Made by a program: the position numbers and the translations under genes. The notes under the pieces were generated by a model that was not told the origin of the DNA, searched no databases, and saw only the letters and a list, made by a program, of their open reading frames with translations. A stretch of DNA of 64,000 nt, taken from NCBI GenBank assembly GCA_965140585.1, contig OZ223269.1, positions 704,001 through 768,000 of the forward strand, written 5' to 3'. Source of the stretch: Spirochaetia bacterium. GTDB taxonomy: Bacteria > Spirochaetota > Spirochaetia > UBA9216. Of this stretch, positions 1-45,489 are shown piece by piece. Positions within the stretch are counted from its first letter, which is position 1. Every line of letters begins with the position of its first letter.

Positions 1-2
1 TT

Positions 3-1556: not shown

Positions 1557-2512
1557 ATACTTTCAACCGGAAGATCGACTACCTTCGACTTTCAATAACT
1601 GATTTATGTAACCTCAGATGCAGATACTGTATGCCCTCAGGCGGGGTAGAAAAAAAAGAGCACTCAAAGATCCTGAGAATTGAAGAGCTGACTGAAATAG
1701 CAGAAGCTGCAGTTTCCTGCGGAATAAGTAAAATCAGACTAACCGGCGGTGAGCCTCTTGTGAGAAAGGGGCTTATAGAACTTATTAAGAATATTCGTAG
1801 AATTGAGGGGTTAAAAACGTTGACTTTGACCAGTAACGGTATTCTGCTTCCTGATATGGCATTACGACTTAAAGATGCCGGACTTGATCGTGTAAATATC
1901 AGTCTGGATACTCTTAATCGGGAGAAATTCAATTGGATAAGCCGGCTTGATAAACTGGATTCAGTTCTTAAGGGGATAGACAGCGCGATAGAAGCAGGGT
2001 TAACACCTCTAAAGATAAATTCGGTGCTTATTAAAGATTTTAATGAAGATGAAATCCTGGATTTCAAAAAGCTTGCAGAAAATCTTGATATAGAGATAAG
2101 ATTTATTGAGTTAATGCCGGTAGGAGAGGCTTCAGGCTGGACTGAAGACCGTTTTCTGCCTAATAAAACGGTTTTTGACAAGGTGCCCGGTATGATGAAA
2201 ATCGAATTTACCGAAAAAGGAAGCCCCGCTGAAGTATGGCAGCTGCCCGGAGGGAAGGGGCGGTTCGGATTTATAAATCCGATAAGTCACAAATTCTGCG
2301 GAGATTGCAACCGGCTTAGAATTACATCAGAGGGAAAGCTGCTGTCATGTCTCCATTCTAACAGGGGGATAGATATTAAAGATGCTCTGGCTGAAGGAAA
2401 AACTCTGGCAGAAGTTATTAAGGAAGGAATCAGGATGAAACCCGGTGAACATAATCTGGAATTAGCTGATTTTGAAAAAACAAATCACAGTATGCATGAA
2501 GTAGGGGGCTGA
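1550..2512 (+). CDS. moaA: GTP 3',8-cyclase (radical SAM)
   Basis: YLRLSITDLCNLRCRYCMP, RLTGGEP, FCGDCNRLR...C, C-terminal GG. Confidence 0.96.
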   Translation: MLDTFNRKIDYLRLSITDLCNLRCRYCMPSGGVEKKEHSKILRIEELTEIAEAAVSCGISKIRLTGGEPLVRKGLIELIKNIRRIEGLKTLTLTSNGILLPDMALRLKDAGLDRVNISLDTLNREKFNWISRLDKLDSVLKGIDSAIEAGLTPLKINSVLIKDFNEDEILDFKKLAENLDIEIRFIELMPVGEASGWTEDRFLPNKTVFDKVPGMMKIEFTEKGSPAEVWQLPGGKGRFGFINPISHKFCGDCNRLRITSEGKLLSCLHSNRGIDIKDALAEGKTLAEVIKEGIRMKPGEHNLELADFEKTNHSMHEVGG

Positions 2513-2513
2513 T

Positions 2514-3008
2514 ATGGAATTTACCCATTTTAACAGGGACGGCCGTCCGAAAATGGTTGATATTTCTGAAAAAGCAGAAACTGCACGTGAAGCAGTAGCG
2601 GAAGGTTCAGTTATTATGAATATTGAAACGCTTAGACTTATCCGTGATGGCGGTATGAAAAAGGGTGATGTCCTGGGAACCGCACAGTTAGCGGGTATTA
2701 CCGGTGCAAAAAAGACATCTGAGCTTATCCCCATGTGTCATAATATTTTTATCTCCGGAGTTGATATGGATTTTGAATTGATTGAAGCAGAGGATGAGGC
2801 AGGGGCTGCATATGGAAAAATAAATATCACCGCAACAGCCCGTACCTCGGGTCAGACCGGTATAGAGATGGAAGTGATGACAGCGGTGTCAACAGCAGCT
2901 TTGACTGTCTATGATATGTGCAAGGCAGTTGATCGCGGTATGGAAATAACCGGCATCAGATTGATTAGAAAATCCGGAGGAAAATCCGGTCTGTGGCAGA
3001 GAAAATAG
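2514..3008 (+). CDS. moaC: Cyclic pyranopterin monophosphate synthase
   Basis: MVDISEK, KGDVL, LIPMCH, TGIEME, YDMCKAVD, KSGGKSG. Confidence 0.96.
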   Translation: MEFTHFNRDGRPKMVDISEKAETAREAVAEGSVIMNIETLRLIRDGGMKKGDVLGTAQLAGITGAKKTSELIPMCHNIFISGVDMDFELIEAEDEAGAAYGKINITATARTSGQTGIEMEVMTAVSTAALTVYDMCKAVDRGMEITGIRLIRKSGGKSGLWQRK

Positions 3009-3021
3009 AGAAGGCTGAAAT

Positions 3022-3462
3022 ATGAAGAATAAATTTGAACTGTTATCACTGAATATCTCAACGAAAAAAGGTGATAAAAAAGTACCGGTTGATTTTTTTG
3101 AAATTAAACCTGAGCATGGCATAGAGGGAGATGCTCATGCTGGCAACTGGCACAGACAGATATCCCTTCTTGCTGATGAAGATATAGATCTTATGCGTGG
3201 AAAGGGTATTGAACTCAATTTCGGTGATTTTGCGGAGAATATTACAACCAGGGGCATTGAATTATACAGCCTTCCTATAGGGACAAGACTTTTTATTGGA
3301 GATACTGAACTTGAAGTTACTCAGATCGGAAAAGAATGCCATCACGGCTGTGCAATCAGGCAGCAGGTCGGCGACTGTATAATGCCAAGACGGGGAATAT
3401 TTGCAAAGGTCATTAAGGGCGGGAGGATTACTGTTGAAAGCAGCTGTTATTACAATATCTGA
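3022..3462 (+). CDS. MOSC domain protein
   Basis: GDAHAGNWHRQISLL, FAENITT, TQIGKECH..C, CIMPRRGIF. Confidence 0.9.
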   Translation: MKNKFELLSLNISTKKGDKKVPVDFFEIKPEHGIEGDAHAGNWHRQISLLADEDIDLMRGKGIELNFGDFAENITTRGIELYSLPIGTRLFIGDTELEVTQIGKECHHGCAIRQQVGDCIMPRRGIFAKVIKGGRITVESSCYYNI

Positions 3463-3904
3463 CAGAGCCTGCAGAGGTGTATACGAAGATTTATCCGGCC
3501 CTGCCATAGCTGAAATTTTAAGGCAGAAATTTCAGGAGGGGATTGAGATTTCCGGTACAATTGTTCCTGATGAAAAGGAAGCTATTCTTGGTGCTCTTAA
3601 CCAATACGAGTCTAATGATCTGATTTTTACAACAGGCGGAACCGGCCTGGGGCCAAGAGATATAACGCCTGAAGTTACAGCGGCCTGGTGCGAAAGGGAT
3701 GTTCCCGGTATATCAGAAGCCTTAAGAATTCATTCCTGCAGGGAAACACCGATGGCAGTACTGAGCCGGGGTTATTCAGGGCTTCATGGAAATACCCTGG
3801 TTATCAACCTGCCGGGGTCGGTTAAGGCTGTCACATCCTGTACAAATTACCTTCTCGGCATTCTTGAACATGCATTATTAATGATAAAAGGTGCGGGTCA
3901 TTAG
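3434..3904 (+). CDS. mog: Molybdopterin adenylyltransferase (MogA/MoaB family)
   Basis: ITISDR, DLSGP, TTGGTGLGPRDITPE, NLPGS; start placed at TTG 3434 behind GGAGG (3422). Confidence 0.9.
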   Translation: MKAAVITISDRACRGVYEDLSGPAIAEILRQKFQEGIEISGTIVPDEKEAILGALNQYESNDLIFTTGGTGLGPRDITPEVTAAWCERDVPGISEALRIHSCRETPMAVLSRGYSGLHGNTLVINLPGSVKAVTSCTNYLLGILEHALLMIKGAGH

Positions 3905-4113: not shown

Positions 4114-4875
4114 ATGTTGATGCTGTCAATTAAGGGTGTAAGTAAGCACTTTGGCGGTCTGAAGGCATTGAAGAACGTCAGTTTTGATATTCAGGACGGA
4201 CGTATTCATGGCATTATTGGACCCAACGGTTCCGGTAAAACTACTATGTTTAACTGTATAACCGGACTTTTAGAGGTGACTGCGGGTAATATCTACCTGA
4301 ATGATATTGAGATCACCGGCAAACCTGCGCATGAGATTTCCAATTTAGGTATCAGGCGGACCTTCCAGCAGGGGAAATTAGTTCCGTCTCTTAAAGTAAT
4401 AGAAAACGTAATGAGCGGCGTCTATGATTATCATAAAACTGATATCAAAGATACTTTTTTCAGAATACCGTTCAGACAGTCGAAAGTAGAAAAAGAACTT
4501 CGTAATGAAGCTTATGAGGTTCTTGAAATGCTTAATCTTTCAGAATCTGCCGATAGGTGGGCATCTGATCTTGTATGGGCTGAACGCCAGTTTGTTCAGA
4601 TTGCAAGAGCTCTTGTTTCCAAACCAAAAATTCTGCTTATGGACGAACCTGCCTCAGGTATGGGACCTAAAGAAACAGAACAGGTCGGTGAGCTTATTCA
4701 GAAAATTAAGGAAATGGGAATTACAGTGGTAGTTGTAAGCCATGATATGAAAATGCTTATGAATGTTGCTGAGACGGTCACTGTTCTTAACTTCGGAGAT
4801 AATATATTCGAAGGAACACCTTCTGAAGTACAGAAAGACCAGAGAGTACTGGAGGCATATCTTGGCACAGAATGA
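4114..4875 (+). CDS. Branched-chain-amino-acid-family (HAAT) ABC transporter ATPase, LivG-like
   Basis: GPNGSGKTT Walker A, RTFQ, LLMDEPASG, SHDM, C-terminal EAYLG. Confidence 0.92.
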   Translation: MLMLSIKGVSKHFGGLKALKNVSFDIQDGRIHGIIGPNGSGKTTMFNCITGLLEVTAGNIYLNDIEITGKPAHEISNLGIRRTFQQGKLVPSLKVIENVMSGVYDYHKTDIKDTFFRIPFRQSKVEKELRNEAYEVLEMLNLSESADRWASDLVWAERQFVQIARALVSKPKILLMDEPASGMGPKETEQVGELIQKIKEMGITVVVVSHDMKMLMNVAETVTVLNFGDNIFEGTPSEVQKDQRVLEAYLGTE

Positions 4876-5578
4876 AAATATACTGAGTATTGAAAACCTT
4901 TCTGTAAATTACGGACATGTAAAAGCACTTAAAAATATTGATCTCGAACTTAAAAAAGGTGAGATAGTAGTTCTTGTCGGTGCCAACGGGGCGGGTAAAA
5001 CTACTATAATGGAAACTGTACTTGGTGCAAATGTTCCTGAGAATGGTAAAATTACCTATAAAAGCAAAGATATCACCAATACATCTGTAGACAAGAATGT
5101 AAGAAGCGGAATGTTCCTGGTTCCTGAAGGGCGGGGAGTTTTTTCATCGATGACTGTTCTGGATAATCTCCTTCTCGGGGCTCATCACAACCTTTCTCAG
5201 TCTGATAAAAAACTTGAGCTTGTCTATGATTCTTTTCCGGTTCTCGGGAACAGGAAAAATCAGGTCGCCGGTACTTTAAGCGGCGGTGAAAGACAGATGC
5301 TTGCTATTGCAAGAGCTTTGATGTCATCACCGGATATGATTATGGTTGATGAACCGTCTATCGGGCTTGCTCCGATTATAGTAAATGATATTTTTGAGAT
5401 TCTTGTAAATCTGAATAAAGAGGGGTATACAATCCTTCTCTCTGAACAGAATGTCTATAAGGCTCTTAAAATTGCACATCGAGGTTATGTTCTTGAAACA
5501 GGAAATATAATCAAGAGCGGAACTTCTGAAGAACTGTTGAACGATCCTGCAGTTAAAGAAGCATATCTTGGAGCATAG
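4862..5578 (+). CDS. HAAT ABC transporter ATPase, LivF-like
   Basis: GANGAGKTT, VPEGR, LSGGERQMLAIARAL, DEPSIGLAP; start placed at TTG 4862 behind GGAGG (4851). Confidence 0.92.
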   Translation: MAQNENILSIENLSVNYGHVKALKNIDLELKKGEIVVLVGANGAGKTTIMETVLGANVPENGKITYKSKDITNTSVDKNVRSGMFLVPEGRGVFSSMTVLDNLLLGAHHNLSQSDKKLELVYDSFPVLGNRKNQVAGTLSGGERQMLAIARALMSSPDMIMVDEPSIGLAPIIVNDIFEILVNLNKEGYTILLSEQNVYKALKIAHRGYVLETGNIIKSGTSEELLNDPAVKEAYLGA

Positions 5579-5581
5579 AGA

Positions 5582-6472
5582 ATGGAAATATTAATAGCAC
5601 AAATATTTAACGGACTTTCGCTTGGAAGCATTTATGTTCTTTTGGTAACAGGATTTAATCTGCTTCTGCTTGTAGCGATGATTATTCACTTTTCTTTTCC
5701 CGTAGTAATTGTTTTTTCAATGTATATATCCTGGGTCGTGCTGGGATTAACAGGAAATAATATACCGCTCGGTGTTCTCGGCGGAATTGCTTCAGCGATT
5801 GCGGTTAACGCACTCACTGCACCGATGTTTCAGCATATTATGAAAAAACGCGGAAGTGTTGATATAAATGCAACCATGGTAATTTCTATGGGTATGGGAA
5901 TGATTATTACTGATATACTTTCCCACACTTTTAACCAGGGTTTTCCTATTGCTTTTCCTGATGCACTGACCGGAAATGATAAAGGAGCACTTATAAGTGT
6001 AGGTCTTATCAGTATATCAAGAGGTCAGGTTCTTACCCTGATTGTCGGCGTTCTTTTTGTAGCCTTTCTTTTCTGGCTGTTATATAAAACCAGAACCGGG
6101 CGTGCATTCAGAGCCATAGCTGAAGACCCGAACGGAGCAAAACTGGTAGGTATTCCGCTGTTGAAAACCGGATTCTTAAGTTATGCACTTACAGGGATTC
6201 TGGGCGGAGTTACTGCAGTACTTATGGCTATTCTGCTTGGTTCTGCATCTGCAGGACTTGGTGATTCTCTTGGACATAAGGTGCTTGCTGTTTCAATTAT
6301 TGCAGGTCTTGGTAATCTGACGGGAGGACTGATCATCGGATTACTTCTAGGTGTATTGGAAGCCATTATTCAGGGGTACCTTGCCGGTTCCTGGTCCAAC
6401 GCAATCGCTTTTATAATTATGCTTGTTGTTATTTTGGCTAAACCGAAAGGCGTATTCGGAAGCAAGCTATAG
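5582..6472 (+). CDS. HAAT ABC transporter permease, LivH-like
   Basis: NGLSLGSIYVL, TRTGRAFRAIAED, multiple hydrophobic segments, KPKGVFG. Confidence 0.9.
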   Translation: MEILIAQIFNGLSLGSIYVLLVTGFNLLLLVAMIIHFSFPVVIVFSMYISWVVLGLTGNNIPLGVLGGIASAIAVNALTAPMFQHIMKKRGSVDINATMVISMGMGMIITDILSHTFNQGFPIAFPDALTGNDKGALISVGLISISRGQVLTLIVGVLFVAFLFWLLYKTRTGRAFRAIAEDPNGAKLVGIPLLKTGFLSYALTGILGGVTAVLMAILLGSASAGLGDSLGHKVLAVSIIAGLGNLTGGLIIGLLLGVLEAIIQGYLAGSWSNAIAFIIMLVVILAKPKGVFGSKL

Positions 6473-6490
6473 GAAGTCAGGAGGAGTACT

Positions 6491-7369
6491 GTGTCTTTAC
6501 CTTTATATTATTTTCTGGCAATAACCGCCATCTATATACTAATGAGCTGGTCCGTCTATATCCCGTACAGGGTTGGACAGCTTCATTTTATGACAGTTGC
6601 TAATATGGCAATATCAGCATATTTTTCAGCTTTAATGGCTATCAATTTTGATTGGCCTTTCATTGTAGTTTTTATCGTAGGAACTTTGCTTGGTGCATTA
6701 ATCGGGTTTCTGGTTTCCGTAGCGATAGGAGATGCTCCCTGCTTTGCTGTTGTTATTGTAGGCTTCACTTTTATCTATCTCACAAAAACTATAATTGAAA
6801 ATGTTGAAGCATTTGGAGGTCCTCTTGGAATCTTCAGTATACCGAAGATTCTTCAGACTTCAGCATCAAATAGAACATTTCTTATTATTTTCATATATGC
6901 CATGGTTGTAATTACAGGCTTTCTAATTCACCGCTTTGATAATTCAAGACTTGGCAGAGCTGCTTCTGCAATATTTATCGACAGAGAACTTGCAGTATCC
7001 TTCGGTGTTGATGTTAAGAAGATGGGTATGTTCCTTCAGACATGGGCTAGCGCACTCGGCGGAATGTCCGGTGTTCTGTATGCTTTCATTATGAGAAGTA
7101 TTTCACCAAACCATTTTACATTCCATATCGTCGGTGTATGTATGACAATGCTTTTTGTCGGCGGGTATACCACTCAGTGGGGCGCTTTGCTTGCAGCTCC
7201 GCTTCTATGGGGATTTCCGTTAATACTTCCGGATATTGTTGAATCATGGAATATCGTAATCTATGGTATACTGCTCATAGTTGTTCTTGTTATAAAGCCT
7301 GAAGGTGTTATAACAAGGCAGATGATTGAAAAAATTGTGAATGTATTCAAAAAGCCGAAAAAAGCCTGA
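6491..7369 (+). CDS. HAAT ABC transporter permease, LivM-like
   Basis: GGPLGI, SRLGRA, ALGGMSGVLYA, VGG, KPEG; hydrophobic throughout. Confidence 0.88.
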   Translation: MSLPLYYFLAITAIYILMSWSVYIPYRVGQLHFMTVANMAISAYFSALMAINFDWPFIVVFIVGTLLGALIGFLVSVAIGDAPCFAVVIVGFTFIYLTKTIIENVEAFGGPLGIFSIPKILQTSASNRTFLIIFIYAMVVITGFLIHRFDNSRLGRAASAIFIDRELAVSFGVDVKKMGMFLQTWASALGGMSGVLYAFIMRSISPNHFTFHIVGVCMTMLFVGGYTTQWGALLAAPLLWGFPLILPDIVESWNIVIYGILLIVVLVIKPEGVITRQMIEKIVNVFKKPKKA

Positions 7370-7461
7370 GGGAATATTTTTAAACTGTTTTATATTTGAA
7401 AATATCCGACATTTATAAATTGTAATAAACGCGTATGCGTTTAGAATATTAGGAGGAAAAA

Positions 7462-8652
7462 ATGAAAAAGATTTTAACAGTCTTAGTTCTGCTGCTTCTC
7501 TCCATGTCTTTCGTTTATGCAAGCGGAAGTCAGGAAGCAGGCGCTTCTGAAAGCGGTGAGGTAGTTGTCGATGAATGGGAAATCCCTTTCCTTAACTGTC
7601 TGACCGGACCTATTGCAAGTATCGGTGAATACCTGCAGTGGGGTGCTGAATTCGCAGCAGAAGAAATCAATGCTGCAGGCGGTATTGCCGGAAAACCTGT
7701 AAAGGTTGTTGGTATTGATACTGCTATGAGCCCTGAAAAGGGAACTGTTGAAATGTCAAAGCTTGTTGACAGTGCTCTTGTAGTTATGGGTCCTGTACCC
7801 GAACCTGTAATTATGGCTGCTGTACCAATCGCAGCTGATGAGGGACTTTACAGCTTTACAGCTACAACTTCCTACGAATATGCCGCTGAGTATTTTCCAT
7901 GGGCAATTTCATGGTTTGCTCCAACAGAAGAAAGGCTTGCACCGATTATTACTGCATGGGCAAAGAAAACCGGTGCTAAAAATGTTGTTCAGTTTGTAGA
8001 AAACTACGGCGCATGGCCCGGCATGGCAAAAGCTCATGTAAAGGGAGTTAAGGACGCTGGCGCAAATATCCTTGAAGATGTAGATGTACCATCAGATGCA
8101 GTATCTTTTGGTCCGCTTATCGTTAAAGCTCTTGCACAGGAACCTGACGGTATAATTTTTGCATGTAATGCAGAAAAAGTAGCTAAAATTATCATCGAAC
8201 TCAAGAACAGAGGCTGGGAAGATATGAGTAAAATACTTGTATTCTCAAGTGCTGATGATGCTGCTCTTTACACAACAGGCGGCGATAAGATCAATGGTAT
8301 CATGATTTATAACTACAGCGATCCAAGTCTTGATACTCCAAGATGGAATACTTTCAGACAGAGTTTTAAGGACGATCATGACGGTATAGAGCCCTTCAGT
8401 CTTTCACCCAACTACTACGATGCTGTTTATATGATCAAAAGAGCAATCGAAGAAACCGGTGTGACTGGTGATCCTTCAAAACTTGCAGAAGAAAGAACTT
8501 TAATCAGAGATTACTGTAATGATATTCAGAACTTTGACGGTCTTCAGTACAGCTGGTCAAATAAGGGTGGATATCCTGCAGACAAGCCCCTTTTCCTCTT
8601 TGAAATCAAAGGCGGAGAGAAAGTACTTGTTGATAAAATTACAGCTCAGTAA
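7462..8652 (+). CDS. HAAT-family ABC substrate-binding protein (ligand unknown)
   Basis: Signal peptide ending in YASGSQE, LTGPIASIG, EEINAAGGIAGKPV, YDAVY; strong RBS AGGAGG. Confidence 0.9.
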   Translation: MKKILTVLVLLLLSMSFVYASGSQEAGASESGEVVVDEWEIPFLNCLTGPIASIGEYLQWGAEFAAEEINAAGGIAGKPVKVVGIDTAMSPEKGTVEMSKLVDSALVVMGPVPEPVIMAAVPIAADEGLYSFTATTSYEYAAEYFPWAISWFAPTEERLAPIITAWAKKTGAKNVVQFVENYGAWPGMAKAHVKGVKDAGANILEDVDVPSDAVSFGPLIVKALAQEPDGIIFACNAEKVAKIIIELKNRGWEDMSKILVFSSADDAALYTTGGDKINGIMIYNYSDPSLDTPRWNTFRQSFKDDHDGIEPFSLSPNYYDAVYMIKRAIEETGVTGDPSKLAEERTLIRDYCNDIQNFDGLQYSWSNKGGYPADKPLFLFEIKGGEKVLVDKITAQ

Positions 8653-8669
8653 ATCTTAATCAGGTTTAT

Positions 8670-8719
8670 AAAAAACCGCAGACCGAACTGACTAAAGTTC
8701 AATGTCTGCGGTTTTTTTT
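8670..8719. terminator. Bidirectional rho-independent terminator between SBP gene and panE
   Basis: AAAAAACCGCAGAC...GTCTGCGGTTTTTTTT, with inner GAACT/AGTTC pairing in the loop. Confidence 0.85.
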
Positions 8720-8786
8720 ATGCTGATTTAATATTTAAATCAATTAGGCAATTTCAAAACTAACATAGTTTTGCAAGAAGCTCAAT

Positions 8787-9704
8787 TTATCTTTTAAGGT
8801 CATAGGTTTTTACAAGGGCTCCAATTACTCGGTTAGCCGGGGTCTCAATTCCAAGCTCCTGCCCCTTCTTGACGATGGCATTATTTATAAAATCTATTTC
8901 CGTGCGGCTTCCCCTGTCAAAATCCTGAAGCATTGATGACCTGTTTGCTCCGGTCTTTTCAGAGACTGAATAAACAGTTTCAAGAGGATTCTCATAGGTA
9001 AGCTCTATTCCTGCTGCTTTTGCAACTGCCACAGCTTCGTTAACCAGCTCACTCATCAACCCCTTGGTTGTTTCGTAATCGAGCAGTTCTCCATTCTTAA
9101 GCCCGGTTAATGCAGTTAATGCATTGATACCGACATTGATTACCAACTTACTCCAGACCAGTCCTGCAATATCATCTTCAAGCATAATTTCGAATCCGGC
9201 TTTTGAAAGCTCTTTGGAAAAGGCTTCAAGCTTTGAGTTATCCCCGTTTGACATACACAGGTGGGTAGGGCCGTTTCCTGCGTGTTTGATATGTCCGGGA
9301 CCTGCAAATGTAGCACCCTGAGATGTAACTCCCGCCGCAGTGTTTGATGCTCCGAAAACCTCTCTTATAAGATCCTCATTGCCTATTCCGTTCTGGAGGG
9401 TGACTACTACTGTTGAATCTGAAGCATGCTTTTTGAAAGATTCTGCAACAGCCTTGGTTGCTGTTGATTTTACAAAAATGATCATAATATCAGAGTCTTT
9501 AACATCTTCAGGGTTATCAGAGGCTTTGACTTTGATAAACTCGCTGTCTCCGGTTGCAAGCGTCTCTATTCGTAAGCCGTTTTCATTTACTGCATTCACA
9601 TGTGCTAAATTTATGTCATATAAAACAACTTCATTTCCTACCGCTGCAAGCTTTCCCCCGAACAGCGAACCCATTGCTCCTGAACCAATAATTGATATTT
9701 TCAT
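8787..9704 (-). CDS. panE: 2-dehydropantoate 2-reductase (ketopantoate reductase)
   Basis: GSGAMG, FVKS, TLQNG, WSKLVIN, SSMLQD, RTEIDFIN. Confidence 0.93.
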   Translation of the reverse strand: MKISIIGSGAMGSLFGGKLAAVGNEVVLYDINLAHVNAVNENGLRIETLATGDSEFIKVKASDNPEDVKDSDIMIIFVKSTATKAVAESFKKHASDSTVVVTLQNGIGNEDLIREVFGASNTAAGVTSQGATFAGPGHIKHAGNGPTHLCMSNGDNSKLEAFSKELSKAGFEIMLEDDIAGLVWSKLVINVGINALTALTGLKNGELLDYETTKGLMSELVNEAVAVAKAAGIELTYENPLETVYSVSEKTGANRSSMLQDFDRGSRTEIDFINNAIVKKGQELGIETPANRVIGALVKTYDLKR

Positions 9705-9705
9705 T

Positions 9706-10662
9706 TTATTCTCCTGCTAATCCCGGTATTCCGAATATGGTTTTTGCAGCTTTTACACCTTCAATAACTGCAACTGCCATTACTTCGGCAGCCATACTGC
9801 CGATTGCGGTCAAATCTGCTTCTATATCTCCATTTGAAAGACAGAAAATACTGTCTCCGTCATGCATGGTATGTATTGGGTTTATAGTTCTAGCATAGCC
9901 GTCATGAGCCATCTGAGCAACTTTTGCAGCCTGAGGTTTAGTCAGTTTTGCGTTAGTTGCAATGACACCTATGGTTGTGTTTGATTTTATCGGATTAATA
10001 CCTGTTGATACCTGTTCTGCCAGCAGTTTTGCAGTTCCTGGAAATTCTCCGGGTTTACCCGATCTGGTTCCTGCAATTATCTGACCGGTGGTATTGTCTA
10101 TAACATCTCCAAAACAGTTTACAGCAACTATTGCACCGACAACGATATCACCAATCTTCATGCTTGCAGTTCCAAGTCCACCCTTCATGCAGAAATCGAT
10201 ACCTTTGGCTTTTCCAAGGGTTGCCCCTGTTCCTGCTCCAATGTTCCCCATTCTTGATTCATTTGAATTAGCCGCCAGACAGGCTTCATATCCCATCTTT
10301 TGATCCGGACGGGCTTTATAATCGGCTACCGGCAGATCAAAAAGGACAGCTCCGGGAACTATTGGTACCAGTCCTATTCCGATATCAAGACCTCTGTTAT
10401 TTTCTTCACTCCACTTCATGACACCGTCTGCGCCAGCGAGGCCGTAGGCACTGCCGCCGCCAAGATAGACAGCATGGACTGTCTGTATATAATTTACCGG
10501 ATTGAGGCAGTCGGTCTCTCTTGTTCCGGGCGCTCCGCCGGCAACATCAACACCGCATACTGCCTCTGTTTCAGGCAGAATAACTGTACAACCTGTCCCG
10601 CCTGTTAAATCCTGTGCATGACCGACTTTTATGCCGGGTACATCGCATATACTTCCGCTCAT
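9706..10662 (-). CDS. P1/S58-family (DmpA/NylC-like, DOM-fold) self-processing amidase
   Basis: DVPGIKVGH, TGCTV, GGAPGTRET, GGSAYGL, VPIVPGAVLFDL, GAGTGA, SN-TTIG autocleavage site, HDGYAR, DGD. Confidence 0.9.
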   Translation of the reverse strand: MSGSICDVPGIKVGHAQDLTGGTGCTVILPETEAVCGVDVAGGAPGTRETDCLNPVNYIQTVHAVYLGGGSAYGLAGADGVMKWSEENNRGLDIGIGLVPIVPGAVLFDLPVADYKARPDQKMGYEACLAANSNESRMGNIGAGTGATLGKAKGIDFCMKGGLGTASMKIGDIVVGAIVAVNCFGDVIDNTTGQIIAGTRSGKPGEFPGTAKLLAEQVSTGINPIKSNTTIGVIATNAKLTKPQAAKVAQMAHDGYARTINPIHTMHDGDSIFCLSNGDIEADLTAIGSMAAEVMAVAVIEGVKAAKTIFGIPGLAGE

Positions 10663-10675
10663 TATAACTCCATAA

Positions 10676-11878
10676 TTATTCTAAATTTTCTAATACTTCT
10701 TTAGTTTCTGATGCCATCATCCATTCTTCATTAGTGGGGATGACAAGTACTTTTACCTTTGATTGACTGCTGCTTATAACTGATTCAACACCGGCTGCTG
10801 AATCATTAAGTTCTGAATCAATTTCGATACCGAGAACTTCCAGGCCGCTGCATATTTTTTCTCTTATAACTGCAGAGTTTTCTCCAATTCCGGCAGTGAA
10901 GATAAGTGCATCCATTCTGCCATCAAGAGTACAGGCAAGCTTACCTATATATTTTCTGATAGAACGAACAAATATTTCAAGAGCAAGTACACTTCTTTCC
11001 TGTCCTTCATCTGCAGCTTTAAGAATATCACGTAAATCAGGAGAGACTCCGCTTATTCCGGCAAGACCGGATTTCTTATAAATTATATCCTTAACCTCGG
11101 CTGCCGAAAAACCAGCTTCAGTTATCAGGTGTAAAACTGCATCAGGATCCACATCCCCGGCACGTGTCCCCATTGGAACCCCGCATGCTGTGCCTAAACC
11201 GAGCGAAGTGTCCACAGCTCTGCATCCAATAGATGACGTAAGCGATACACCGCCTCCGATATGTGCGCTTACAGTATGCAGTTTCTCTTTAGGCAGCCCG
11301 AGCATTTCTGCAGCTCTTAGATTGATGTATTTATGCGAGGCTCCGTGAAATCCGAATTTCCGAAGGCCGTATTTCTCATAGTATTCATAGCCCAGTCCGA
11401 ATGAAAATGCCGCCTGGCTCATATCAGAATAATAGGCGGTATCAAAACTTGCACACTGGGGAAGCTCGGGGAGCAGGGCAGTTATGGCCTGTACTCCGAG
11501 AAGTCCCGGAGGATTATGAAGGGGTGCAAGATTGAGATTGTCTTCCACTACAGAAACAACTTCAGGAGTAATAAGCATTGGCCTGGTCAGCTTATCTCCG
11601 CCATGAACGAGCCGATGGCCGACAGCATCAATTTCAGAAATATCTTTTAGTATGCCTGTATCATCGGAGGTAAGCAGATTCAATACTGTCTCAAGTCCCT
11701 GTTTGTGATTTTCAACATTAATATTAAATTCCTTCTTAAAAACCGAAGTTTCAATCTTGATAACGCTGTTGTTTCCAACCCTGTCAACCAGCCCTTTACA
11801 GATGGTCTGCTCATTATCCATTTTGAATATCTGGAATTTTATTGAAGTGCTCCCGCTGTTAATTATAAGAATTTTCAA
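10676..11878 (-). CDS. ackA: Acetate/propionate/butyrate kinase family protein with atypical acyl-pocket residues
   Basis: INSGSTSIK, GHRLVHGG, APLHN, FDT, GFHGASH, MGTR, FTAGIGEN, TNEE; TTG start with GGAGG RBS; substrate uncertain. Confidence 0.85.
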   Translation of the reverse strand: MKILIINSGSTSIKFQIFKMDNEQTICKGLVDRVGNNSVIKIETSVFKKEFNINVENHKQGLETVLNLLTSDDTGILKDISEIDAVGHRLVHGGDKLTRPMLITPEVVSVVEDNLNLAPLHNPPGLLGVQAITALLPELPQCASFDTAYYSDMSQAAFSFGLGYEYYEKYGLRKFGFHGASHKYINLRAAEMLGLPKEKLHTVSAHIGGGVSLTSSIGCRAVDTSLGLGTACGVPMGTRAGDVDPDAVLHLITEAGFSAAEVKDIIYKKSGLAGISGVSPDLRDILKAADEGQERSVLALEIFVRSIRKYIGKLACTLDGRMDALIFTAGIGENSAVIREKICSGLEVLGIEIDSELNDSAAGVESVISSSQSKVKVLVIPTNEEWMMASETKEVLENLE

Positions 11879-12030
11879 ATAATGCCTCCTGTTTGAAAAA
11901 AACTCAAAATCACATTATAATTAAGTATTAGTTAAATTTCGTTATCTTTTCCTTGTTAAAAAATACTATTATAGGTTATATTATTATACAAGGTAAATAT
12001 AGGTTAAATTATACACTTTAGGAGTTTAAT

Positions 12031-12897
12031 ATGAGTTCACATCCGGAAGCAACAAAAAAATTGCTCGCTGCTGATCTTCAGAAGATGAAAGACGACGGCG
12101 AAAAGATATCAATGATCACTGCTTATAATTATCCACAGGCAATGGTTGTTGATGAAGCAGGAATCGACATTATCCTGGTGGGTGATTCACTGGGCATGGT
12201 TGAACTTGGCTACAAAGACACTGTTCCTGTAACCATGGATGAAATGCTGATGCATACCAAGGCTGTTATGAGGGCTGTAAATAGAGCTCACGTAGTAGGT
12301 GACCTTCCTTTTATGTCATACAATATCTCAAATGAACAGGCTGTAACCAATGCAGGTATCCTTTATAAGGATGGGCTTTGCGATTCTATCAAGTTCGAAG
12401 GCGGCCAGGATTTTGCACCTACAGCTGCCGCAATAACCAAGGCTGGTATCCCGGTTTTTGCACATATCGGACTTACTCCTCAGACAGCTGCCACAATGGG
12501 CGGTTTCAAGGTTCAGGGTAAATCACTTGATGCTGCAAAATCAGTGCTTGATGATGCTCTTGCAATGCAGGACGCAGGTGCTTTTGCAATCATTCTTGAA
12601 GCTATTCCCCAGCAGCTTGCTGCAATAATTACAGAACAGCTTACTATTCCTACAGTTGGTATCGGAGCAGGTCCTTCATGTGCAGGACAGGTTCTTGTTT
12701 ATCATGACCTTCTCGGACTCTTTAAGAGATTTACTCCGAAGTTTGTAAAGGTTTATGCTGATATGTATACACCTCAGGTTAATGCTGTTAAGGAATTTAT
12801 CGGTGAAGTTAAGGATGTAAAATTTCCTACAAACGACCACAGTTTCAACATGAAAGCCGAAGCAGTTGAAGAACTGAAAAAGGCACTGGGGCTTTAA
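12031..12897 (+). CDS. panB: 3-methyl-2-oxobutanoate hydroxymethyltransferase
   Basis: MITAY, ILVGDSLGM, DLPFMSY, KFEGG, HIGLTPQ, GIGAG..C.GQVLV.HD. Confidence 0.96.
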   Translation: MSSHPEATKKLLAADLQKMKDDGEKISMITAYNYPQAMVVDEAGIDIILVGDSLGMVELGYKDTVPVTMDEMLMHTKAVMRAVNRAHVVGDLPFMSYNISNEQAVTNAGILYKDGLCDSIKFEGGQDFAPTAAAITKAGIPVFAHIGLTPQTAATMGGFKVQGKSLDAAKSVLDDALAMQDAGAFAIILEAIPQQLAAIITEQLTIPTVGIGAGPSCAGQVLVYHDLLGLFKRFTPKFVKVYADMYTPQVNAVKEFIGEVKDVKFPTNDHSFNMKAEAVEELKKALGL

Positions 12898-12898
12898 T

Positions 12899-13804
12899 AT
12901 GTCAGCTGTATTGATTAAGGGAACAGATATACGGGAAGAGATTCTCGCTGAATTAAGGGCAGAAACTGCAGAGCTTAAAGAGAAGTACGGAAAAGTTCCG
13001 GGTCTCGTTACTATTCTTATTGGTGAAAACCCGGCTTCCATCTCCTATGTAACCCTTAAGATCAAGACAGCACAGAGTCTCGGTTATAATGAAATTCAGG
13101 ACACACGGTCTGAAGATATAACCGAGGCTGAATTACTTGAATTAATTGATAAATATAATAAGGATGAAAATATTCACGGAATCCTTGTTCAGCTACCTCT
13201 TCCAAAACATATAGATGAAAAGAAGGTTCTGAACGCTATCGATCCTGATAAGGATGTCGATGGATTTCATCCTGTAAATGTCGGACGGCTTATGATTGGC
13301 GGTGATGAGGTGAAATATCCGCCATGTACTCCTGCAGCAATTCAGGAGATGATTATCCGTTCCGGTGTTGAAACTAAAGGAGCTGAAGTTGTAGTAGTAG
13401 GGCGCTCCAATATTGTTGGAAAGCCGATAGCCAATATGATGCTGCAAAAAGGTGCAGGGGCTAATTCTACTGTGACAGTTGTGCATACCGGTACCAAGAA
13501 CCTGGCTGAACACTGCCTGAGGGCAGATATTCTGATAGTTGCAGCTGGAGTTCCTGGACTGGTTAAGCCGCAATGGATTAAAAAAGGAGCATGTGTTATT
13601 GATGTTGGAGTAAACAGAGTAGGTGAAAAAATCAGTGAAAAAACCGGAAAGAAAATAGCAGTTCTTAAGGGTGACGTTGATTTCGAAGAAGCCTCTCAGA
13701 TTGCCGGATATATTACCCCCGTACCCGGCGGTGTAGGTCCCATGACAATAACAATGCTTATGAAGAATACTTTAAAATCATTCAAATACGCATTGAGGTT
13801 ATAA
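12899..13804 (+). CDS. folD: Methylene-THF dehydrogenase / methenyl-THF cyclohydrolase
   Basis: [45 protein letters not shown]. Confidence 0.96.
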
Positions 13805-13806
13805 TT

Positions 13807-15570
13807 ATGAAACTTGATCCGACTAAGATGAAGGACTGGGAGATTGCAGAAGCAGCTGAAAAGGATATGAAGACAGTCTATCAGCTTGCTGAAGAACTGA
13901 ATCTGGATAAAATGGAGATTCTTCCGTATGGTCACTTCCTTGGTAAACTGGATTACAACGCTATTCTTGAGCGACTGAAAGATAAACCGGATGGAAAATA
14001 CATCGAAGTTACGGCAATAAATCCTACTCCGCTTGGCGAAGGAAAGACAACTACAACCATGGGACTGGTTGAAGGACTTGGAAAGATTGGTAAATCTGTC
14101 TGCGGAGCCATCAGGCAGCCTTCAGGCGGACCTACATTCAACATTAAGGGTTCAGCCGCTGGAGGCGGACTTGCACAATGTGTACCTCTTACCGAGTTTA
14201 GTCTCGGACTTACCGGCGATATAGACGCCATTACTAATGCACACAACCTGGCTATGGTTGCTCTTACCAGCCGAATTCAGCATGAATTCAACTACGGCGA
14301 TGATGTGCTTGATAAAAAGAATCTAAAAAGACTTGATATAGATCCAAGAAATCCTGCAATAGGATGGGCTATAGATTTTTCAGCCCAGGCACTCCGGGAA
14401 ATAATAATAGGACTCGGCGGAAAGATGGACGGATTTATGATGAAAAGCGGTTTTCAGATAACTGTTTCATCAGAAATTATGGCCATACTTGCTGTTGCCA
14501 AAGATCTTAAGGATATGCGGGAACGCATAGGTAAGATGATTATCGGTTACAACAAGAAAGGTGAAGCTGTTACTGCTGATGATCTTGAAGTAGGGGGAGC
14601 CATGACTGCCCTGATGGCACGGGCAATCAACCCGAACATCATGCAGACTATCGAAGGTCAGCCTGTACTTGTTCATGCAGGCCCTTTTGCAAATATTGCG
14701 ATCGGCCAGTCATCAATTATAGCTGACCGTGTGGGACTTAAACTCTGTGATTACCATGTAACAGAGAGCGGTTTCGGTGCAGATATCGGTTTTGAGAAGT
14801 TCTGGAACCTTAAATGCCGGTTCTCAGGGCTTGTTCCGAACTGTTCAGTGATTGTGTGTACAGTAAGAGCTTTAAAGATGCACGGAGGAGGTCCAAAGGT
14901 TGTTCCGGGCAAACCTCTCGATAAGGCATATACTGAAGAGAATATTGAACTGGTTGAAAAAGGACTTGAAAACCTTCTTGCCCATATTGCAACCGTCAGA
15001 AAGAGCGGTGTACCTGCAGTTGTATGTATAAACCACTTTTATACTGATACTGATAAGGAAATTGAGGTCATCAGGGAAGCCTGTAAGAAAGCCGGTGCCA
15101 GGGTTGCCTTATCAAAACACTGGGAAAAAGGCGGTGAAGGCGCGGTTGAACTTGCAAATGCAGTTGTCGAAGCCTGTGAAGAAAAGCCGGATTTTAAATT
15201 CCTTTATGAAGATTCTACTCCTCTTAAGGATAGAATTGAGCTTATTGCTACCCAGGTTTACGGCGCCGATGGTGTGAGCTACAGTGCTGAAGCTGCTGCC
15301 AAGCTGGAAAAGATTCAGAATGACAGTGCCTTGAACGGTCTGGGAACCTGTATGGTTAAGACCCATCTGTCATTGTCGCACGACCCGACTCTGAAAGGCC
15401 GCCCGAAAGGCTGGACGCTCCCGATAAGTGATATACTTGTATACCAGGGAGCAGGGTTTATTGTCCCTGTTGCCGGAGGTATTAAGCTTATGCCCGGTAC
15501 TGCCTCGGATCCTGCATTCAGGCAGATCGATGTCGATACAGATACCGGACGTGTAAAAGGCCTTTTTTAA
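13807..15570 (+). CDS. fhs: Formate--tetrahydrofolate ligase
   Basis: [48 protein letters not shown]. Confidence 0.96.
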
Positions 15571-15596: not shown

Positions 15597-15632
15597 ATCA
15601 GCCGGAGCAATGAACCGCTCCGGCTTTTTTTT
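15597..15632 (+). terminator. Rho-independent terminator after fhs; copy 1 of a 35-bp direct repeat
   Basis: ATCAGCCGGAGC-AATGAACC-GCTCCGGC followed by T8. Confidence 0.85.
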
Positions 15633-15708: not shown

Positions 15709-17846
15709 ATGAGAAAACTTTTACTATTGCTGACAGCGATAACTTTGCTGTTCCTGTTCTACAGCTGTCCGACTGGATTGGTTGATACCCCTGAAGATGA
15801 TGATACAGAAGAAACAGTTTCACGGAATGATGTAACTATTTTATCAAGTACGTACAGTGATGAAACGGCTGTTATCTTTTACACCGAACCTTCAGATTCT
15901 GATTTCTACGCTACTGAGCTGACATTTACACCAACAGTATCTGGAATTTCGCAGCCTATTGAAATAAAAAAAGGTGAAAGTCTGCTTAGCGGTACTACAT
16001 CTTTAGGCTATCTGGCAGATTTGAGCAACGATACTGAATATACTCTTACTCTTACCGCTGTTTACAGTGATGATTCAAGTGCCGCCGGAGTTTCGGCTAA
16101 AGTTACGCCAATAGCAGATGTCTATCCTCCTGAAAATCTTACAGCAGTCAGGGGAGATCAAGAAGTTACTCTAAGCTGGGATGAACCCGCTGATAATAAC
16201 TGGTTTTATATTAACTTTGAGTTTACACCTGAAGACGGAGGCTATGAACAACCCTTTGCAATTTTTTCTTCTGAAACAGAATATACTATTGATGGTCTTA
16301 CAAACGGAACAGAATACACATTTAATGTTTATGCATCAGATTTTTTCGATCTTGAATCATCTAAGGTTGAAATCACATCAACACCATCAGCTGATCTTAA
16401 TCCTCCAGCACTTACTGCTTCATCAGTATTTCTAATAGATGTTGATATGGATGAGGGGGAACTGGCGGGCACATGTGAAATTGAAATGGCAGCCGATGAA
16501 AGTGATATTGAACGTTACAAGCTTTACTGGGGCTCTTCTGAGACAGTGAAGCTTGATGAGACTGCAATTACATCCATCGATAAAACTGGAGCTGATTTAG
16601 AGTATACGTTCTCAGAGAATACGGCCGTACCTTCAGGCGCAGCATACCTGCTTGTATATACAGAGAATGGGGATGGCGAAACAGCCGTTCCGTTTGCATA
16701 TGAGCTGAAGGATTTTATTGTAACGCAGGAACCGTATACCGGTACATTTAATTATCCTGTTGAGATATCTGGAAGTTATTATTCAACAAGATATCCGGAT
16801 TTGGGAATATTTGAATGGGATGGCACAGATTTCACAGCTATGGCAAGTCCTTCTGTAGCCTGGGCTTCTTCTCCCGAAGGATTATCGGCTTTTGGAAACG
16901 ATTTGATGTTTTGTGCGAGTGATGGCACTTCATCAAGGTTATGGAGACTGGATCCTGATGCTGGTACTGCAGGATATATATCCGGTATTGACTCAACATG
17001 TCTACCTGGAATTGATTTTGATGGCAGATATTTCTTTTCGATGGAAGATCCCACAATAGGTAAATCCTTGTACAGCTGTGACAGTTCAGGAACTGTAGAA
17101 TTGATTTATGATTGTGATGTGAGCAGCGATTCACAGAGCACATATACTTTATGTGAATTTGATTCAAAACTATTTTTATAGGTATTGATTCTACAGGTAT
17201 GGAACAACTTTATGTATGTGAGGATGATGATAATGACGGAAACTATACGATTACCCAGATAAGCTCCTTCTCAGATACAGCATTTAGAATAGATATTTAT
17301 CAATTTTTTATTAAGGATGGAGTTCTATATTTTCTGGGAGGTCCTGATAGCTGGTATAATTTATTCAGCTGGGATGGTGTTAGTATAAATCAGGAAACTT
17401 TATTTACTAATCCGAGCCGTATTGCAGAATCTGCTATAGAAGGAAGCCGGATGATTGAAAGCTATGCAAATAATATCTATTTTTCAGCCGGAAGTACATC
17501 CGATGGAGTAGAACTTTGGGTTTATGATGGTTTATCAGAGTCAATTGCCTATGATTTTTTTGATGCCGGTGAAGGTTTGTATACCTTTGGTGGTTATCCA
17601 ATGGGGTTGAAGGGGCATGATGGCTATTTATTTTTCCAGGCTTATAAGGAAGGTTCGGGTAATATGCTCTATCTTTATGATGGAATAAATACACCGGTAG
17701 GATTGATTGATACAAATGTAGATGACAATACTTCTTCAATAACTTATACAATGCCATTTACTGTAATTGATGATGATATGGTTTTTATGGATTTTACATC
17801 CGAAGATAATATTGATTTTTACCGTCTTACTATCGAGCAATTTTAA
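15709..17846 (+). pseudogene. Surface lipoprotein with fibronectin type III domains and ELWxxDGT-like beta-propeller repeats, split by a 1-nt frameshift at about 17173-17177
   Basis: Lipobox FYSC; Fn3 motifs (PPENLTA...VTLSWDEP...GLTNGTEYTFNVYA); propeller repeats (IYFSAGSTSDGVELWVYDG); ORFs 15709-17181 and 17199-17846 join as KLFFIGIDSTGMEQLY if one T is added to the T5 run. Confidence 0.72.
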
Positions 17847-17972: not shown

Positions 17973-19517
17973 ATGAACGAAGACGCAGAATCAAATTACA
18001 CCGAAGACGAAATAAATAACTGTATAAATATATTAAAAGCCCTCTCTGAAAATGCAGATCAGTTAGTTGCTATTCCCAGAGAAACACAGATTGAACTTCT
18101 AAAAGCGGCAGGCGCATTGTCCAAACCGGATCATACAGTTCTAAAGCAGAGAAAAAAAGCAGCCGCGAGAAAAAAACGGCAGGAGACTGTCGCTGATGAA
18201 CGCGCTGCCCGTGCCGCAACCGGAATACGAAGCGCCCGTGAAAACATAGTGTTTTCGGCGCCGAGACAGCTGACCTGCGATGAAATTGTTACCGATAAAG
18301 ACCTTGTTCTAAATTCCCCCCGCAACTGCTATGTATGCAAAAAAGAATACACTCGAATGCATTTCTTTTATGATGCGATGTGTCCTGAATGCGCCGAACT
18401 TAATTACTATAAAAGGTTTCAGACTGCAGATTTACGGGGGCAGGTTGCGGTTATTACTGGTTCCAGACTTAAAATTGGATATCAGGCAACTTTGATGCTT
18501 CTTAGGGCCGGTGCTGAGGTTGTTGCCACCACACGATTTCCTGTGGATTCCGCTATTCGGTATTCGAAAGAAGCTGATTTTACTGAATGGGGTCATCGTC
18601 TGCATGTCTACGGGCTTGATCTGCGTCACACCCCCAGTGTTGAACTTTTCTGTACTCATATTGCCGACAGGTTTGGACGGCTGGATATACTTATAAACAA
18701 TGCTGCCCAGACAGTCCGGCGTCCGCCCGGCTTTTACCAGCATCTGATGGGTAATGAATTAATGCCGCGGGAGGAGCTTCCTGAAAAAGTCCGAAGCCTT
18801 CTTTTTGATTATGAATCCTGCCTTAACCGGATTGAAACATTTTCACACAGCAGTCATTCAGATGATGCTATTGTTCCGGTGTCCTGGGAGGCCAGAATTC
18901 CAGGCCTTGGGATGATTGAATCGGCCAGATTATCGCAGATCCCGTACGCGTATGAAGACAATCATGAAGTTGAAGCTGTTTTTCCTCAAGGCAAACTGGA
19001 TGTCGACTTGCAGCAGGTTGATCTGCGAACAACAAACAGCTGGCGCCTTAAGCTTGGTGAGATTCAGACCTCGGAAATGCTGGAACTCCAGCTTATCAAT
19101 GCTGTTGCCCCATTTGTACTATGCAATAGGCTTGTCCCTCTTATGAAAAAAGAAAATACCGGCTGCAAGCATATAATCAATGTTTCCGCCATGGAAGGCA
19201 AGTTTATGCGTTTTAAAAAAGGCGAGAGGCATCCGCATACCAATATGGCAAAAGCAGCGCTTAACATGCTTACGCACACATCCGCCAGCGAACTTGCTGA
19301 ACATGGAATATATATGAATGCGGTTGATACAGGCTGGGTGACTGATGAAGACCCGGCTCAGCTCGCGAAAAAGAAGCAGGAGCTGCACGATTTTCAGCCG
19401 CCTCTCGATATAGTAGACGGCGCTGCCCGTGTCTGTGATCCGCTTTTTGACGGTATAAATACAGGGCGGCACTGGTGTGGAATGTTTCTTAAAGACTACT
19501 TTCCGATTGACTGGTAA
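17973..19517 (+). CDS. Atypical SDR-family oxidoreductase with N-terminal CxxC...CxxC module
   Basis: CYVC...CPEC; TGSRLKIG Rossmann motif; LINNAAQT; INVSAMEG; [10 protein letters not shown]; VDTGWV. Confidence 0.8.
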
Positions 19518-35985: not shown

Positions 35986-36015
35986 CTTTATCCTCTCTTT
36001 CAGAAAATTCGTCTT

Positions 36016-38278: not shown

Positions 38279-38760
38279 ATGTGAGCTCCGTTTTCAGAGG
38301 CCTTTTTTACAGCTTCTATAATCATACTGTATCCAGTGCAGCGGCAGAGATTACCTGAAAGGCCTTCTTTTATTTGTTCACCGTCAGGAACCGGATTTTT
38401 TCTAAGCAGAGCAGCAGTTGCCAGAATAAAACCGGGAGTACAGAATCCGCACTGCACAGCGCCGCATTGAGCATATGCTTCTGAAATTATCCGGAATTCC
38501 TCGGTTTTGCTGAATCCTTCGATAGTTATTATTTCATCGCCATCTACTGCTGCCGCAGGAACGGTGCAGGAATTAACAAGCCTGCCGTTTCTGAAAACAC
38601 TGCAGGCTCCGCATTCTCCCTCACCGCAGCCTTCCTTTACGCCCGTAAGTTGAAAATTATTCCGCAGAATATCAAGCAGCCGATCAGAAGGGCCGGCGGT
38701 TATTTCAATGTCTTTTCCGTTAAGATTAAATTTCAGGTTAATTTTTACCTTGCTGTTCAT
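38266..38760 (-). CDS. Xanthine-dehydrogenase-family 2x[2Fe-2S] subunit
   Basis: GCGEGECGAC, NSC, QCGFCTPG, GNLCRCTGY. Confidence 0.94.
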   Translation of the reverse strand: MNSKVKINLKFNLNGKDIEITAGPSDRLLDILRNNFQLTGVKEGCGEGECGACSVFRNGRLVNSCTVPAAAVDGDEIITIEGFSKTEEFRIISEAYAQCGAVQCGFCTPGFILATAALLRKNPVPDGEQIKEGLSGNLCRCTGYSMIIEAVKKASENGAHIWRK

Positions 38761-40895: not shown

Positions 40896-40896
40896 A

Positions 40897-43280: not shown

Positions 43281-43297
43281 TCTAAAAACTCCTGATA

Positions 43298-45488: not shown

Positions 45489-45489
45489 C

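Follow-up and report, generated by a model that had tools for sequence, protein, structure and literature searches.

A gene cluster conserved in three bacterial phyla with a proposed role in the import and breakdown of pantetheine and pantothenate

Here, we present the analysis of an eleven-gene cluster located on a 64 kb stretch of DNA, in the following called the window, from a Spirochaetia bacterium (GenBank assembly GCA_965140585.1, contig OZ223269.1, positions 704,001 to 768,000). On balance, and with modest confidence, we read this cluster as a conserved system which imports pantetheine and/or pantothenate, that is a pantoyl amide released from coenzyme A (CoA), and breaks it down to 2-ketoisovalerate and a one-carbon (C1) unit by reversed reactions of the enzymes PanE and PanB. 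The substrates, the direction of PanE and PanB and the substrate of an accompanying kinase are inferred from gene content, synteny, homologies and phyletic patterns.

Open reading frame (ORF) calls and profile family matches in the window were compared with the gene list of a preliminary description made from the sequence, and agreed on the positions of eleven genes in three tight units. A Liv-type ATP-binding cassette (ABC) importer of five genes (4114-8652, plus strand) converges on a unit consisting of an ackA-like kinase gene, a gene for an S58-type amidase and panE (11878-8787, minus strand), which in turn diverges across 152 nt from panB-folD-fhs (12031-15570, plus strand). The gaps of 1-2 nt given earlier for the latter unit were measured as 1 nt (panB/folD) and 2 nt (folD/fhs), and the description of kinase, amidase and panE as a second tight unit was likewise borne out, with gaps of 13 nt (S58/ackA) and 1 nt (panE/S58). 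The GC content is uniform over the region (0.39-0.44).

For the study of conservation, 23 S58 orthologs were aligned and one genome per species was scanned; of 453 relatives the best 80 loci were kept and searched with the proteins of the window, and all ORFs were clustered. The S58 gene is accompanied by panE and/or panB in 30 of these 80 loci, comprising 24 from a spirochete clade, five from Atribacterota and one from Calditrichales, while the other 50 include many short contigs or other contexts. Since this recurrence, which the preliminary description had proposed to look for, extends over three phyla (Spirochaetota, Atribacterota and Calditrichota), the arrangement is more than chance. 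The panE gene lies directly 3′ of S58 in 23 loci, and panB adjoins S58 in 19.

The individual versions of the cluster differ in their composition. In Atribacterota, the gene order is a four-subunit 2-oxoacid:ferredoxin oxidoreductase, livGFHM, binding protein, M20 hydrolase, S58, panE and panB. The Calditrichales genome shows panB, M20, panE, an OPT transporter, S58 and an IclR regulator, and in several spirochetes S58-panE-M20 is followed by genes for a HAD phosphatase, a Dpp-type ABC system and a phosphoesterase (HAD phosphatase and phosphoesterase in L044 and L026). The importer thus varies between HAAT-type ABC, Dpp-type ABC, OPT and PanT systems with S58 as the constant partner; the parts shared by every cluster version are hydrolases and importers alone, and no ATP-dependent ligase is among them. 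The M20 protein scores above cut-off as an ArgE/DapE-type deacylase (TIGR01910) and has orthologs in 19 loci (60-66% identity within spirochetes, 46-48% across phyla). It belongs to most cluster versions, is missing from the subclade of the window, and is the better candidate for the pantothenate-cleaving step, i.e. a candidate pantothenase. The 2-oxoacid oxidoreductase, which the preliminary description had predicted to be encoded elsewhere, is part of the cluster in Atribacterota, is adjacent to it in L072 and L019, lies beside S58 in L073 and L079, and has an ortholog on contig C4 of the window's genome (C4:119312-122600). The S58 tree follows taxonomy, so that the linkage of S58 to pan genes is old or has arisen repeatedly and does not stem from one recent transfer. 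The S58 lineage of the window's subclade sits on a long stem branch.

Some S58 loci outside these versions are of interest in their own right. The S58 genes of Vibrio, Psychromonas and Marinomonas (L005-L009) are nested in the spirochete clade, which suggests transfer; they accompany an amidase-signature enzyme and a Dpp-type ABC system, and in two Vibrio loci a Cof-type HAD phosphatase is encoded upstream of S58. In one Atribacterota locus (L023, 1015-3834) a binding protein, S58 and a NUDIX protein are encoded in the absence of M20, panE and panB, and in this variant the cluster possibly serves salvage alone. The NUDIX gene following panB in Atribacterota was tried as a CoA pyrophosphatase gene and dropped: it is ADP-ribose-pyrophosphatase-like and NudE/YffH-like and is followed by dnaG-rpoD.

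The amidase itself (9706-10662, minus strand) is a predicted self-processing protein of the S58/P1 type (PF03576, Peptidase_S58, 165 bits, cut-off 23.9) and is proposed, from its relationships, to be a pantetheine and/or pantothenate hydrolase. Among solved relatives, it is matched best in sequence by a nylon-66 hydrolase of unknown natural role (229 bits), followed by an ‘L-aminopeptidase/D-esterase’ (187 bits) and by ThnT (182 bits, E 1e-52), with NylC at 97 bits and DmpA and BapA below threshold. An AlphaFold2 model (pLDDT 83.7, pTM 0.87) used as a Foldseek query gave a probability of 1.00 for Nyl50 (TM 0.83, 40% identity), ThnT (TM 0.77, 39-40%) and NylC (29%), with identities of only 18-20% to DmpA and BapA. 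The residues N228-T229-T230 are invariant in the 23 aligned orthologs, and the predicted cleavage site N228/T229 aligns with the N-T-T of ThnT that is mutated in the T282A and T282C structures. The assignment as NylC/DmpA-type in the preliminary description therefore has to be revised: judged by similarity, ThnT is the nearest enzyme whose natural function is known. ThnT is presented as a pantetheine hydrolase (PMC6097109, PMC13725253; title of PDB entry 3TM1) which hydrolyses a pantetheinyl amide (PMC6097109) and truncates CoA together with ThnR and ThnH (PMC6097109, PMC13725253), and a 2026 review names it as the sole known microbial pantetheine hydrolase (PMC13602198). Going by these relationships, pantetheine is at least as likely a substrate of the S58 protein as pantothenate. 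The window's genome encodes one S58 paralog, 45% identical and located on C7 in an uninformative context.

An independent link of S58 to vitamin B5 comes from clostridia. In four of four loci of one clostridial S58 clade, the gene immediately 5′ of S58 encodes the S-component of an energy-coupling factor (ECF) transporter, which matches the structures 4RFS (E 4e-21) and 6ZG3 (6e-12) far better than ThiT (0.015); both structures are given as ECF-PanT in PMC11521937. These pairs of a PanT-like S-component and S58 were seen in Clostridium and Garciella (L052, L061, L069 and L075, around 9270-10970) and could be two-gene units for pantetheine/pantothenate salvage.

The genome of the window (4.85 Mb, 98.5% complete), whose closest public relative is a Spirochaetia metagenome-assembled genome (L001), was searched as a whole for genes of pantothenate and CoA synthesis. 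PanC, PanD, the archaeal phosphopantothenate synthetase (PPS), CoaB (DFP domain) and a type I pantothenate kinase were not detected in it; in 14 reference genomes used as a control, PanC, PanD, PPS and CoaB were detected in 9, 8, 4 and 14 cases, respectively. The absence of panC and panD, reported earlier for the window, thus holds genome-wide, and the cluster falls outside canonical pantothenate/CoA biosynthesis. The genome does encode CoaX, a Fumble-type kinase and CoaE. Because panC, panD, PPS and CoaB are absent, pantoate has no known anabolic use here and no known path to CoA, and the organism probably relies on pantetheine from outside. Pantetheine is a substrate of type II kinases as well. 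In B. subtilis, CoaA and not CoaX was shown to phosphorylate pantetheine (PMC11487621).

The other cluster-bearing genomes show the same tendency. PanC was found in two of the 30 and CoaB in seven, compared with 5/19 and 19/19 of the scored genomes that carry S58 without the cluster. The seven CoaB-positive genomes are those of the five Atribacterota, the Calditrichales genome and one of the 24 spirochetes with a weak match. In the five Atribacterota, the search for PPS gave nothing convincing, the only match being a 25-residue fragment at a contig end (30 bits). A cultured Caldatribacterium is described as requiring pantothenate. In a background sample of 201 Spirochaetota genomes that are at least 90% complete, CoaB was found in 165, panB in 129 and panC in 140. 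Taken by itself, a missing panC is not diagnostic; the reverse direction is argued from the combination of missing panC, PPS and CoaB with amidases and importers.

The free-living Spirochaetia behind L001-L077 (24 genomes) and that of the window were recorded as lacking the CoaB (DFP) domain, which is present in 14 of 14 controls, and as keeping CoaX, the Fumble-type kinase and CoaE. This suggests an obligate dependence on pantetheine. The idea that Borrelia lacks coaBC is wrong according to PMC12774342.

Both enzymes proposed to run backwards are well supported members of their families. PanE (2-dehydropantoate 2-reductase, 8787-9704, minus strand) passes the family cut-off (TIGR00745, 285 bits, cut-off 141), reaches no equivalog cut-off and scores 192 bits against the solved reductase 3HWR; two distant paralogs exist in the genome. 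In the cluster, it is proposed to act as a pantoate dehydrogenase. PanB (ketopantoate hydroxymethyltransferase, 3-methyl-2-oxobutanoate hydroxymethyltransferase; 12031-12897, plus strand) reaches equivalog level (TIGR00222, 312 bits, cut-off 208), is encoded in a single copy and is proposed to run in the cleavage direction. FolD (12899-13804, plus strand; NF010765 equivalog, 560 bits, cut-off 501) and the formate-tetrahydrofolate ligase Fhs (13807-15570, plus strand; PF01268, 777 bits) could process the C1 unit. Since the genome holds one copy of each, and the second, housekeeping copies suggested for a check do not exist, folD and fhs of the cluster are housekeeping genes and not duplicates dedicated to a pathway. 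The panB-folD adjacency is found in L001, L002, L004, L010, L011, L012 and L041 and is the only one of the panB-folD-fhs links kept beyond the closest relative; fhs shares the orientation of panB-folD in the window and L001 alone and lies nearby on the opposite strand in other spirochetes.

The importer is a complete HAAT-type ABC set of two ATPases, two permeases and one binding protein. The LivG-like ATPase (4114-4875, plus strand; PF00005 and BCA_ABC_TP_C) has LivG as its best NCBIfam match, below cut-off, and orthologs of it adjoin the cluster both in Spirochaetota and in Atribacterota (49-53% identity to the latter). The LivF-like ATPase (4763-5578, plus strand; PF00005) probably starts downstream of 4763, because homology begins only at residue 38. 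It is followed, also on the plus strand, by a LivH-like (5582-6472) and a LivM-like (6491-7369) permease, both with PF02653 (BPD_transp_2; 104 and 73 bits), and by an exported substrate-binding protein of the HAAT type (7462-8652; Peripla_BP_6, PF13458, 150 bits) with an N-terminal signal peptide. The latter is 61-65% identical to its Atribacterota counterpart and thus the best conserved of the shared proteins; its ligand is proposed to be pantetheine or pantothenate.

Taken together, the following route is proposed. The ABC importer would take up pantetheine and/or pantothenate. In most relatives, S58 would then hydrolyse pantetheine to pantothenate and cysteamine, and M20 would split pantothenate into pantoate and beta-alanine; in the lineage of the window, from which M20 has been lost, S58 itself would have to release pantoate. 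PanE would oxidise pantoate to ketopantoate, which PanB would cleave to 2-ketoisovalerate and methylene-tetrahydrofolate (methylene-THF). From the latter, FolD and Fhs could yield formate and ATP, while ketoisovalerate could be converted to isobutyryl-CoA by the 2-oxoacid:ferredoxin oxidoreductase, whose genes belong to the cluster in Atribacterota and lie on contig C4 in the genome of the window. More tentatively, the divergent AckA-type kinase might gain ATP at a later step from an acyl phosphate. The preliminary description had likewise read the locus as catabolic, and its interpretation is partly supported: it is strengthened by the cross-phylum cluster and the absence of panC and panD, while pantetheine has been added to pantothenate as an at least equally likely substrate and folD and fhs have proved to be single-copy housekeeping genes.

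Several observations weigh against this proposal. The genome of the window and its nearest relatives contain no M20 ortholog: the best matches there have 28-33% identity, compared with 46-66% among true orthologs, and the M20 paralogs of the genome, including that at 42060-43280 of the window, were rejected as orthologs of the cluster's M20. In this lineage, the step from pantothenate to pantoate is therefore left with no assigned enzyme unless S58 performs it; either S58 cleaves pantothenate in the window's subclade or the pathway is truncated. Moreover, spirochetes without CoaB probably need imported pantetheine for their CoA, and its destruction looks paradoxical. The equilibrium of PanE favours reduction. 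The sole copies of folD and fhs could equally feed methylene-THF to PanB for synthesis, so that they do not decide in which direction the flux runs. The solved relatives of the binding protein, which are distant (E 1e-13) and of low similarity, bind amino acids or urea, and the NUDIX gene of the Atribacterota cluster may be incidental. Finally, ten of the 129 panB-positive Spirochaetota genomes of the background sample lack panC, so this pattern is not unique to the cluster. None of the nine besides that of the window has an S58 ortholog (E<=1e-40). In four of the nine, panB lies by coaC-coaB and/or archaeal-type PPS, a biosynthetic context; the other five show no PPS either. The idea that panB without panC always marks the cluster was dropped on these grounds.

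In two other spirochete families, f3 and f7 (L085, G079:C1:260000-279999, and L087, G180:C40), panB stands beside coaC-coaB and/or PPS (PF02006, 229-243 bits) in the absence of panC; these spirochete loci represent an archaeal-style pantothenate route in bacteria. The loci L088, L089 and L090 (family f16), L091 and L092 have panB and neither panC, PPS nor an S58 ortholog, and the three f16 genomes also show no CoaB.

The kinase (10676-11878, minus strand) is a full-length AckA homolog (TIGR00016, 419 bits, cut-off 293; 382 bits to AckA of T. maritima) with intact nucleotide and catalytic motifs and an altered carboxylate pocket. The canonical stretch T-P-L-E-G-L before MGTR, which we take to line the acetate pocket, is replaced in all 11 cluster-linked kinases and kept in both solved AckAs and in three of three paralogs of the window's genome. 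The earlier question of a second ackA is thereby answered: three canonical paralogs exist, and the cluster kinase, lacking this stretch, is by its sequence not the housekeeping AckA. It occurs in 11 of the 30 cluster loci, all from one spirochete subclade and always directly 5′ of S58, and in no Atribacterota or Calditrichales version. Action on isobutyryl phosphate is possible but not needed, since the genome contains ptb-buk-like pairs and several phosphotransacylases. Amide phosphorolysis was dropped on thermodynamic grounds, by reasoning only. Two phosphotransacylase-family genes lie outside the window, about 4 kb before it (G000:C6:699020-699850) and just after it (C6:770921-771919); one of the two proteins has 304 residues and is Ptb-sized, and either gene could serve the cluster kinase.

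Among the other explanations, salvage or a novel synthesis survives best, although we regard it as unlikely. Importer and S58 would provide the cell with pantothenate, beta-alanine or cysteamine to be reused in its own CoA, PanB and PanE would run forward, possibly with methylene-THF made from formate via folD and fhs, and pantoate would enter an unrecognised ligation independent of PanC and CoaBC, possibly through an acyl phosphate formed by the AckA-like kinase and acyl transfer by S58. Such a route would fit genomes which are auxotrophic by known routes and yet retain panB, panE and CoaX, as well as the divergent kinase gene 13 nt 5′ of S58, seen only in spirochetes of which nearly all lack CoaB; same-fold relatives of S58 such as ArgJ are described as acyl transferases (PMC13725253). 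It is opposed by the restriction of the kinase to little more than a third of the cluster loci in a single phylum and by the universally conserved parts being two hydrolases and importers. For hydrolases, forming amides without activation is thermodynamically unfavourable. Furthermore, among the 19 family f2 genomes of the background sample, CoaB is missing from 16 and panB from every one, so that the cluster is no general substitute for CoaBC, a notion that is weakened accordingly. In a more specific and still less probable form, the kinase and the ThnT-like enzyme would be an ATP-driven amide-forming pair in spirochetes lacking PanC and CoaBC, building pantetheine or 4′-phosphopantetheine together with PanB and PanE.

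Improbable as well is a general amino-acid/peptide amidase cluster, in which the Liv importer would serve amino acids or small amides, S58 would be a D- or beta-aminopeptidase, PanE a broad 2-hydroxyacid dehydrogenase and panB a neighbour without a shared pathway. The best named relatives of the importer are indeed Liv and Urt systems, with every score below cut-off, the S58 family includes aminopeptidases, the S58 orthologs of Tepidanaerobacter and many Atribacterota have unrelated neighbours, and the loci in which S58 adjoins the 2-oxoacid oxidoreductase (L073, L079) lack pan genes. Against this explanation stand the equivalog-level score of PanB and the family-level score of PanE, the S58-panE-panB linkage in three phyla, the much closer relationship of S58 to ThnT than to DmpA/BapA, and the adjacency to PanT in Clostridium. 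Ordinary pantothenate biosynthesis, as automatic annotation would have it, is suggested by panB and panE being bona fide by sequence and by a possible coupling of C1 supply to ketopantoate synthesis in panB-folD-fhs, but is hardly credible: it is already contradicted by the lack of panC, panD, PPS and CoaB in a nearly complete genome and of panC in 28 of 30 cluster genomes, and vitamin-making spirochetes without PanC show PPS next to panB and coaBC, so that such genes are detectable.

The region between the two divergent units (11879-12030) contains promoter-like hexamers on both strands and is a candidate control region; a short TATAACC-like word is present in seven related intergenic regions. 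Overall, the promoter scan was not richer than shuffles (30 sites vs 28.7), and its only striking element is a terminator-like hairpin on the plus strand (15600-15625; 9-pair stem with 7 GC pairs, then a T run) closing the panB-folD-fhs unit. Control by a riboswitch or other RNA was rejected, as no Rfam family was found in positions 1-24000 of the window, including the divergent region. On its 5′ side the cluster is flanked by molybdenum-cofactor synthesis genes at the start of the window (1-3904) and on its 3′ side by unrelated genes, for which no link to the cluster was seen: a fibronectin-III/DUF4959 protein (15709-17181) and a two-half short-chain dehydrogenase protein (17973-19517), both on the plus strand, and a CHASE2-adenylate/guanylate cyclase (19552-22260, minus strand). 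Further downstream (34786-49046, minus strand) lie genes for two xanthine-dehydrogenase-family molybdoenzymes, a 2Fe-2S subunit, two amidohydrolases, an M20 hydrolase, a pyridoxal phosphate enzyme and carbamoyltransferase-like and dihydroorotate-dehydrogenase-like proteins, a set resembling anaerobic purine or pyrimidine degradation.

In the literature searched, which left subscription journals and supplements mostly uncovered, no paper on this cluster or on an anaerobic pantoate route was found; the pathway was thus not found described, which does not prove the absence of a prior description. If the proposed breakdown is true, it would provide the first gene assignments for bacterial degradation of vitamin B5 and pantetheine, with the M20 deacylase as a candidate for the long-orphan pantothenase and S58 as the first microbial pantetheine hydrolase of primary metabolism. 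PanE and PanB, always annotated as biosynthetic, would act catabolically, and predictions of auxotrophy would change for Spirochaetota, Atribacterota and relatives, as panB plus panE would no longer imply synthesis. Sediment and subsurface fermenters would gain a further route for recycling CoA from dead cells, with ATP, formate and branched-chain acids as its yield. In addition, a group of free-living spirochetes that lack CoaB has come to light, and these presumably depend on pantetheine.

Among the closest known systems is ThnR/ThnH/ThnT of the thienamycin cluster of Streptomyces cattleya, which truncates CoA stepwise to pantetheine and cysteamine. The S58 protein shares homology, fold and processing site with ThnT, and the HAD phosphatases and phosphoesterase accompanying S58 in some relatives recall ThnH beside ThnT. 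In contrast to ThnT, which belongs to antibiotic biosynthesis, the S58 protein of the cluster occurs with importers, PanE and PanB in the primary metabolism of anaerobes. NylC/Nyl50 and DmpA/BapA have the same self-processing fold, and Nyl50 is even the best structural match, but nylon hydrolysis is no natural role and none of them is linked to pan genes. The cluster kinases are full-length relatives of the acetate and propionate kinases AckA and TdcD with the catalytic motifs kept, and differ from canonical AckA in the pocket stretch before MGTR. With canonical pantothenate biosynthesis by PanB, PanE, PanD and PanC, the cluster has in common PanB and PanE of the same families, above curated cut-offs; it differs in the absence of PanC, PanD and the downstream CoaB and in the linkage to amidases and importers instead. 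Aerobic degradation of pantothenate in Pseudomonas was worked out by biochemistry in the 1960s and proceeds through pantothenase, pantoate 4-dehydrogenase and a dimethylmalate route. To our knowledge, no sequences have been assigned to its pantoate 4-dehydrogenase and dimethylmalate dehydrogenase steps, and the pantothenase protein was stated to be still unidentified in 2023 (PMC10393543). Whereas in Pseudomonas pantoate is oxidised at C4 with release of CO2, the cluster's proposed route would oxidise C2 via PanE and remove the hydroxymethyl group as methylene-THF via PanB, without oxygen-dependent logic.

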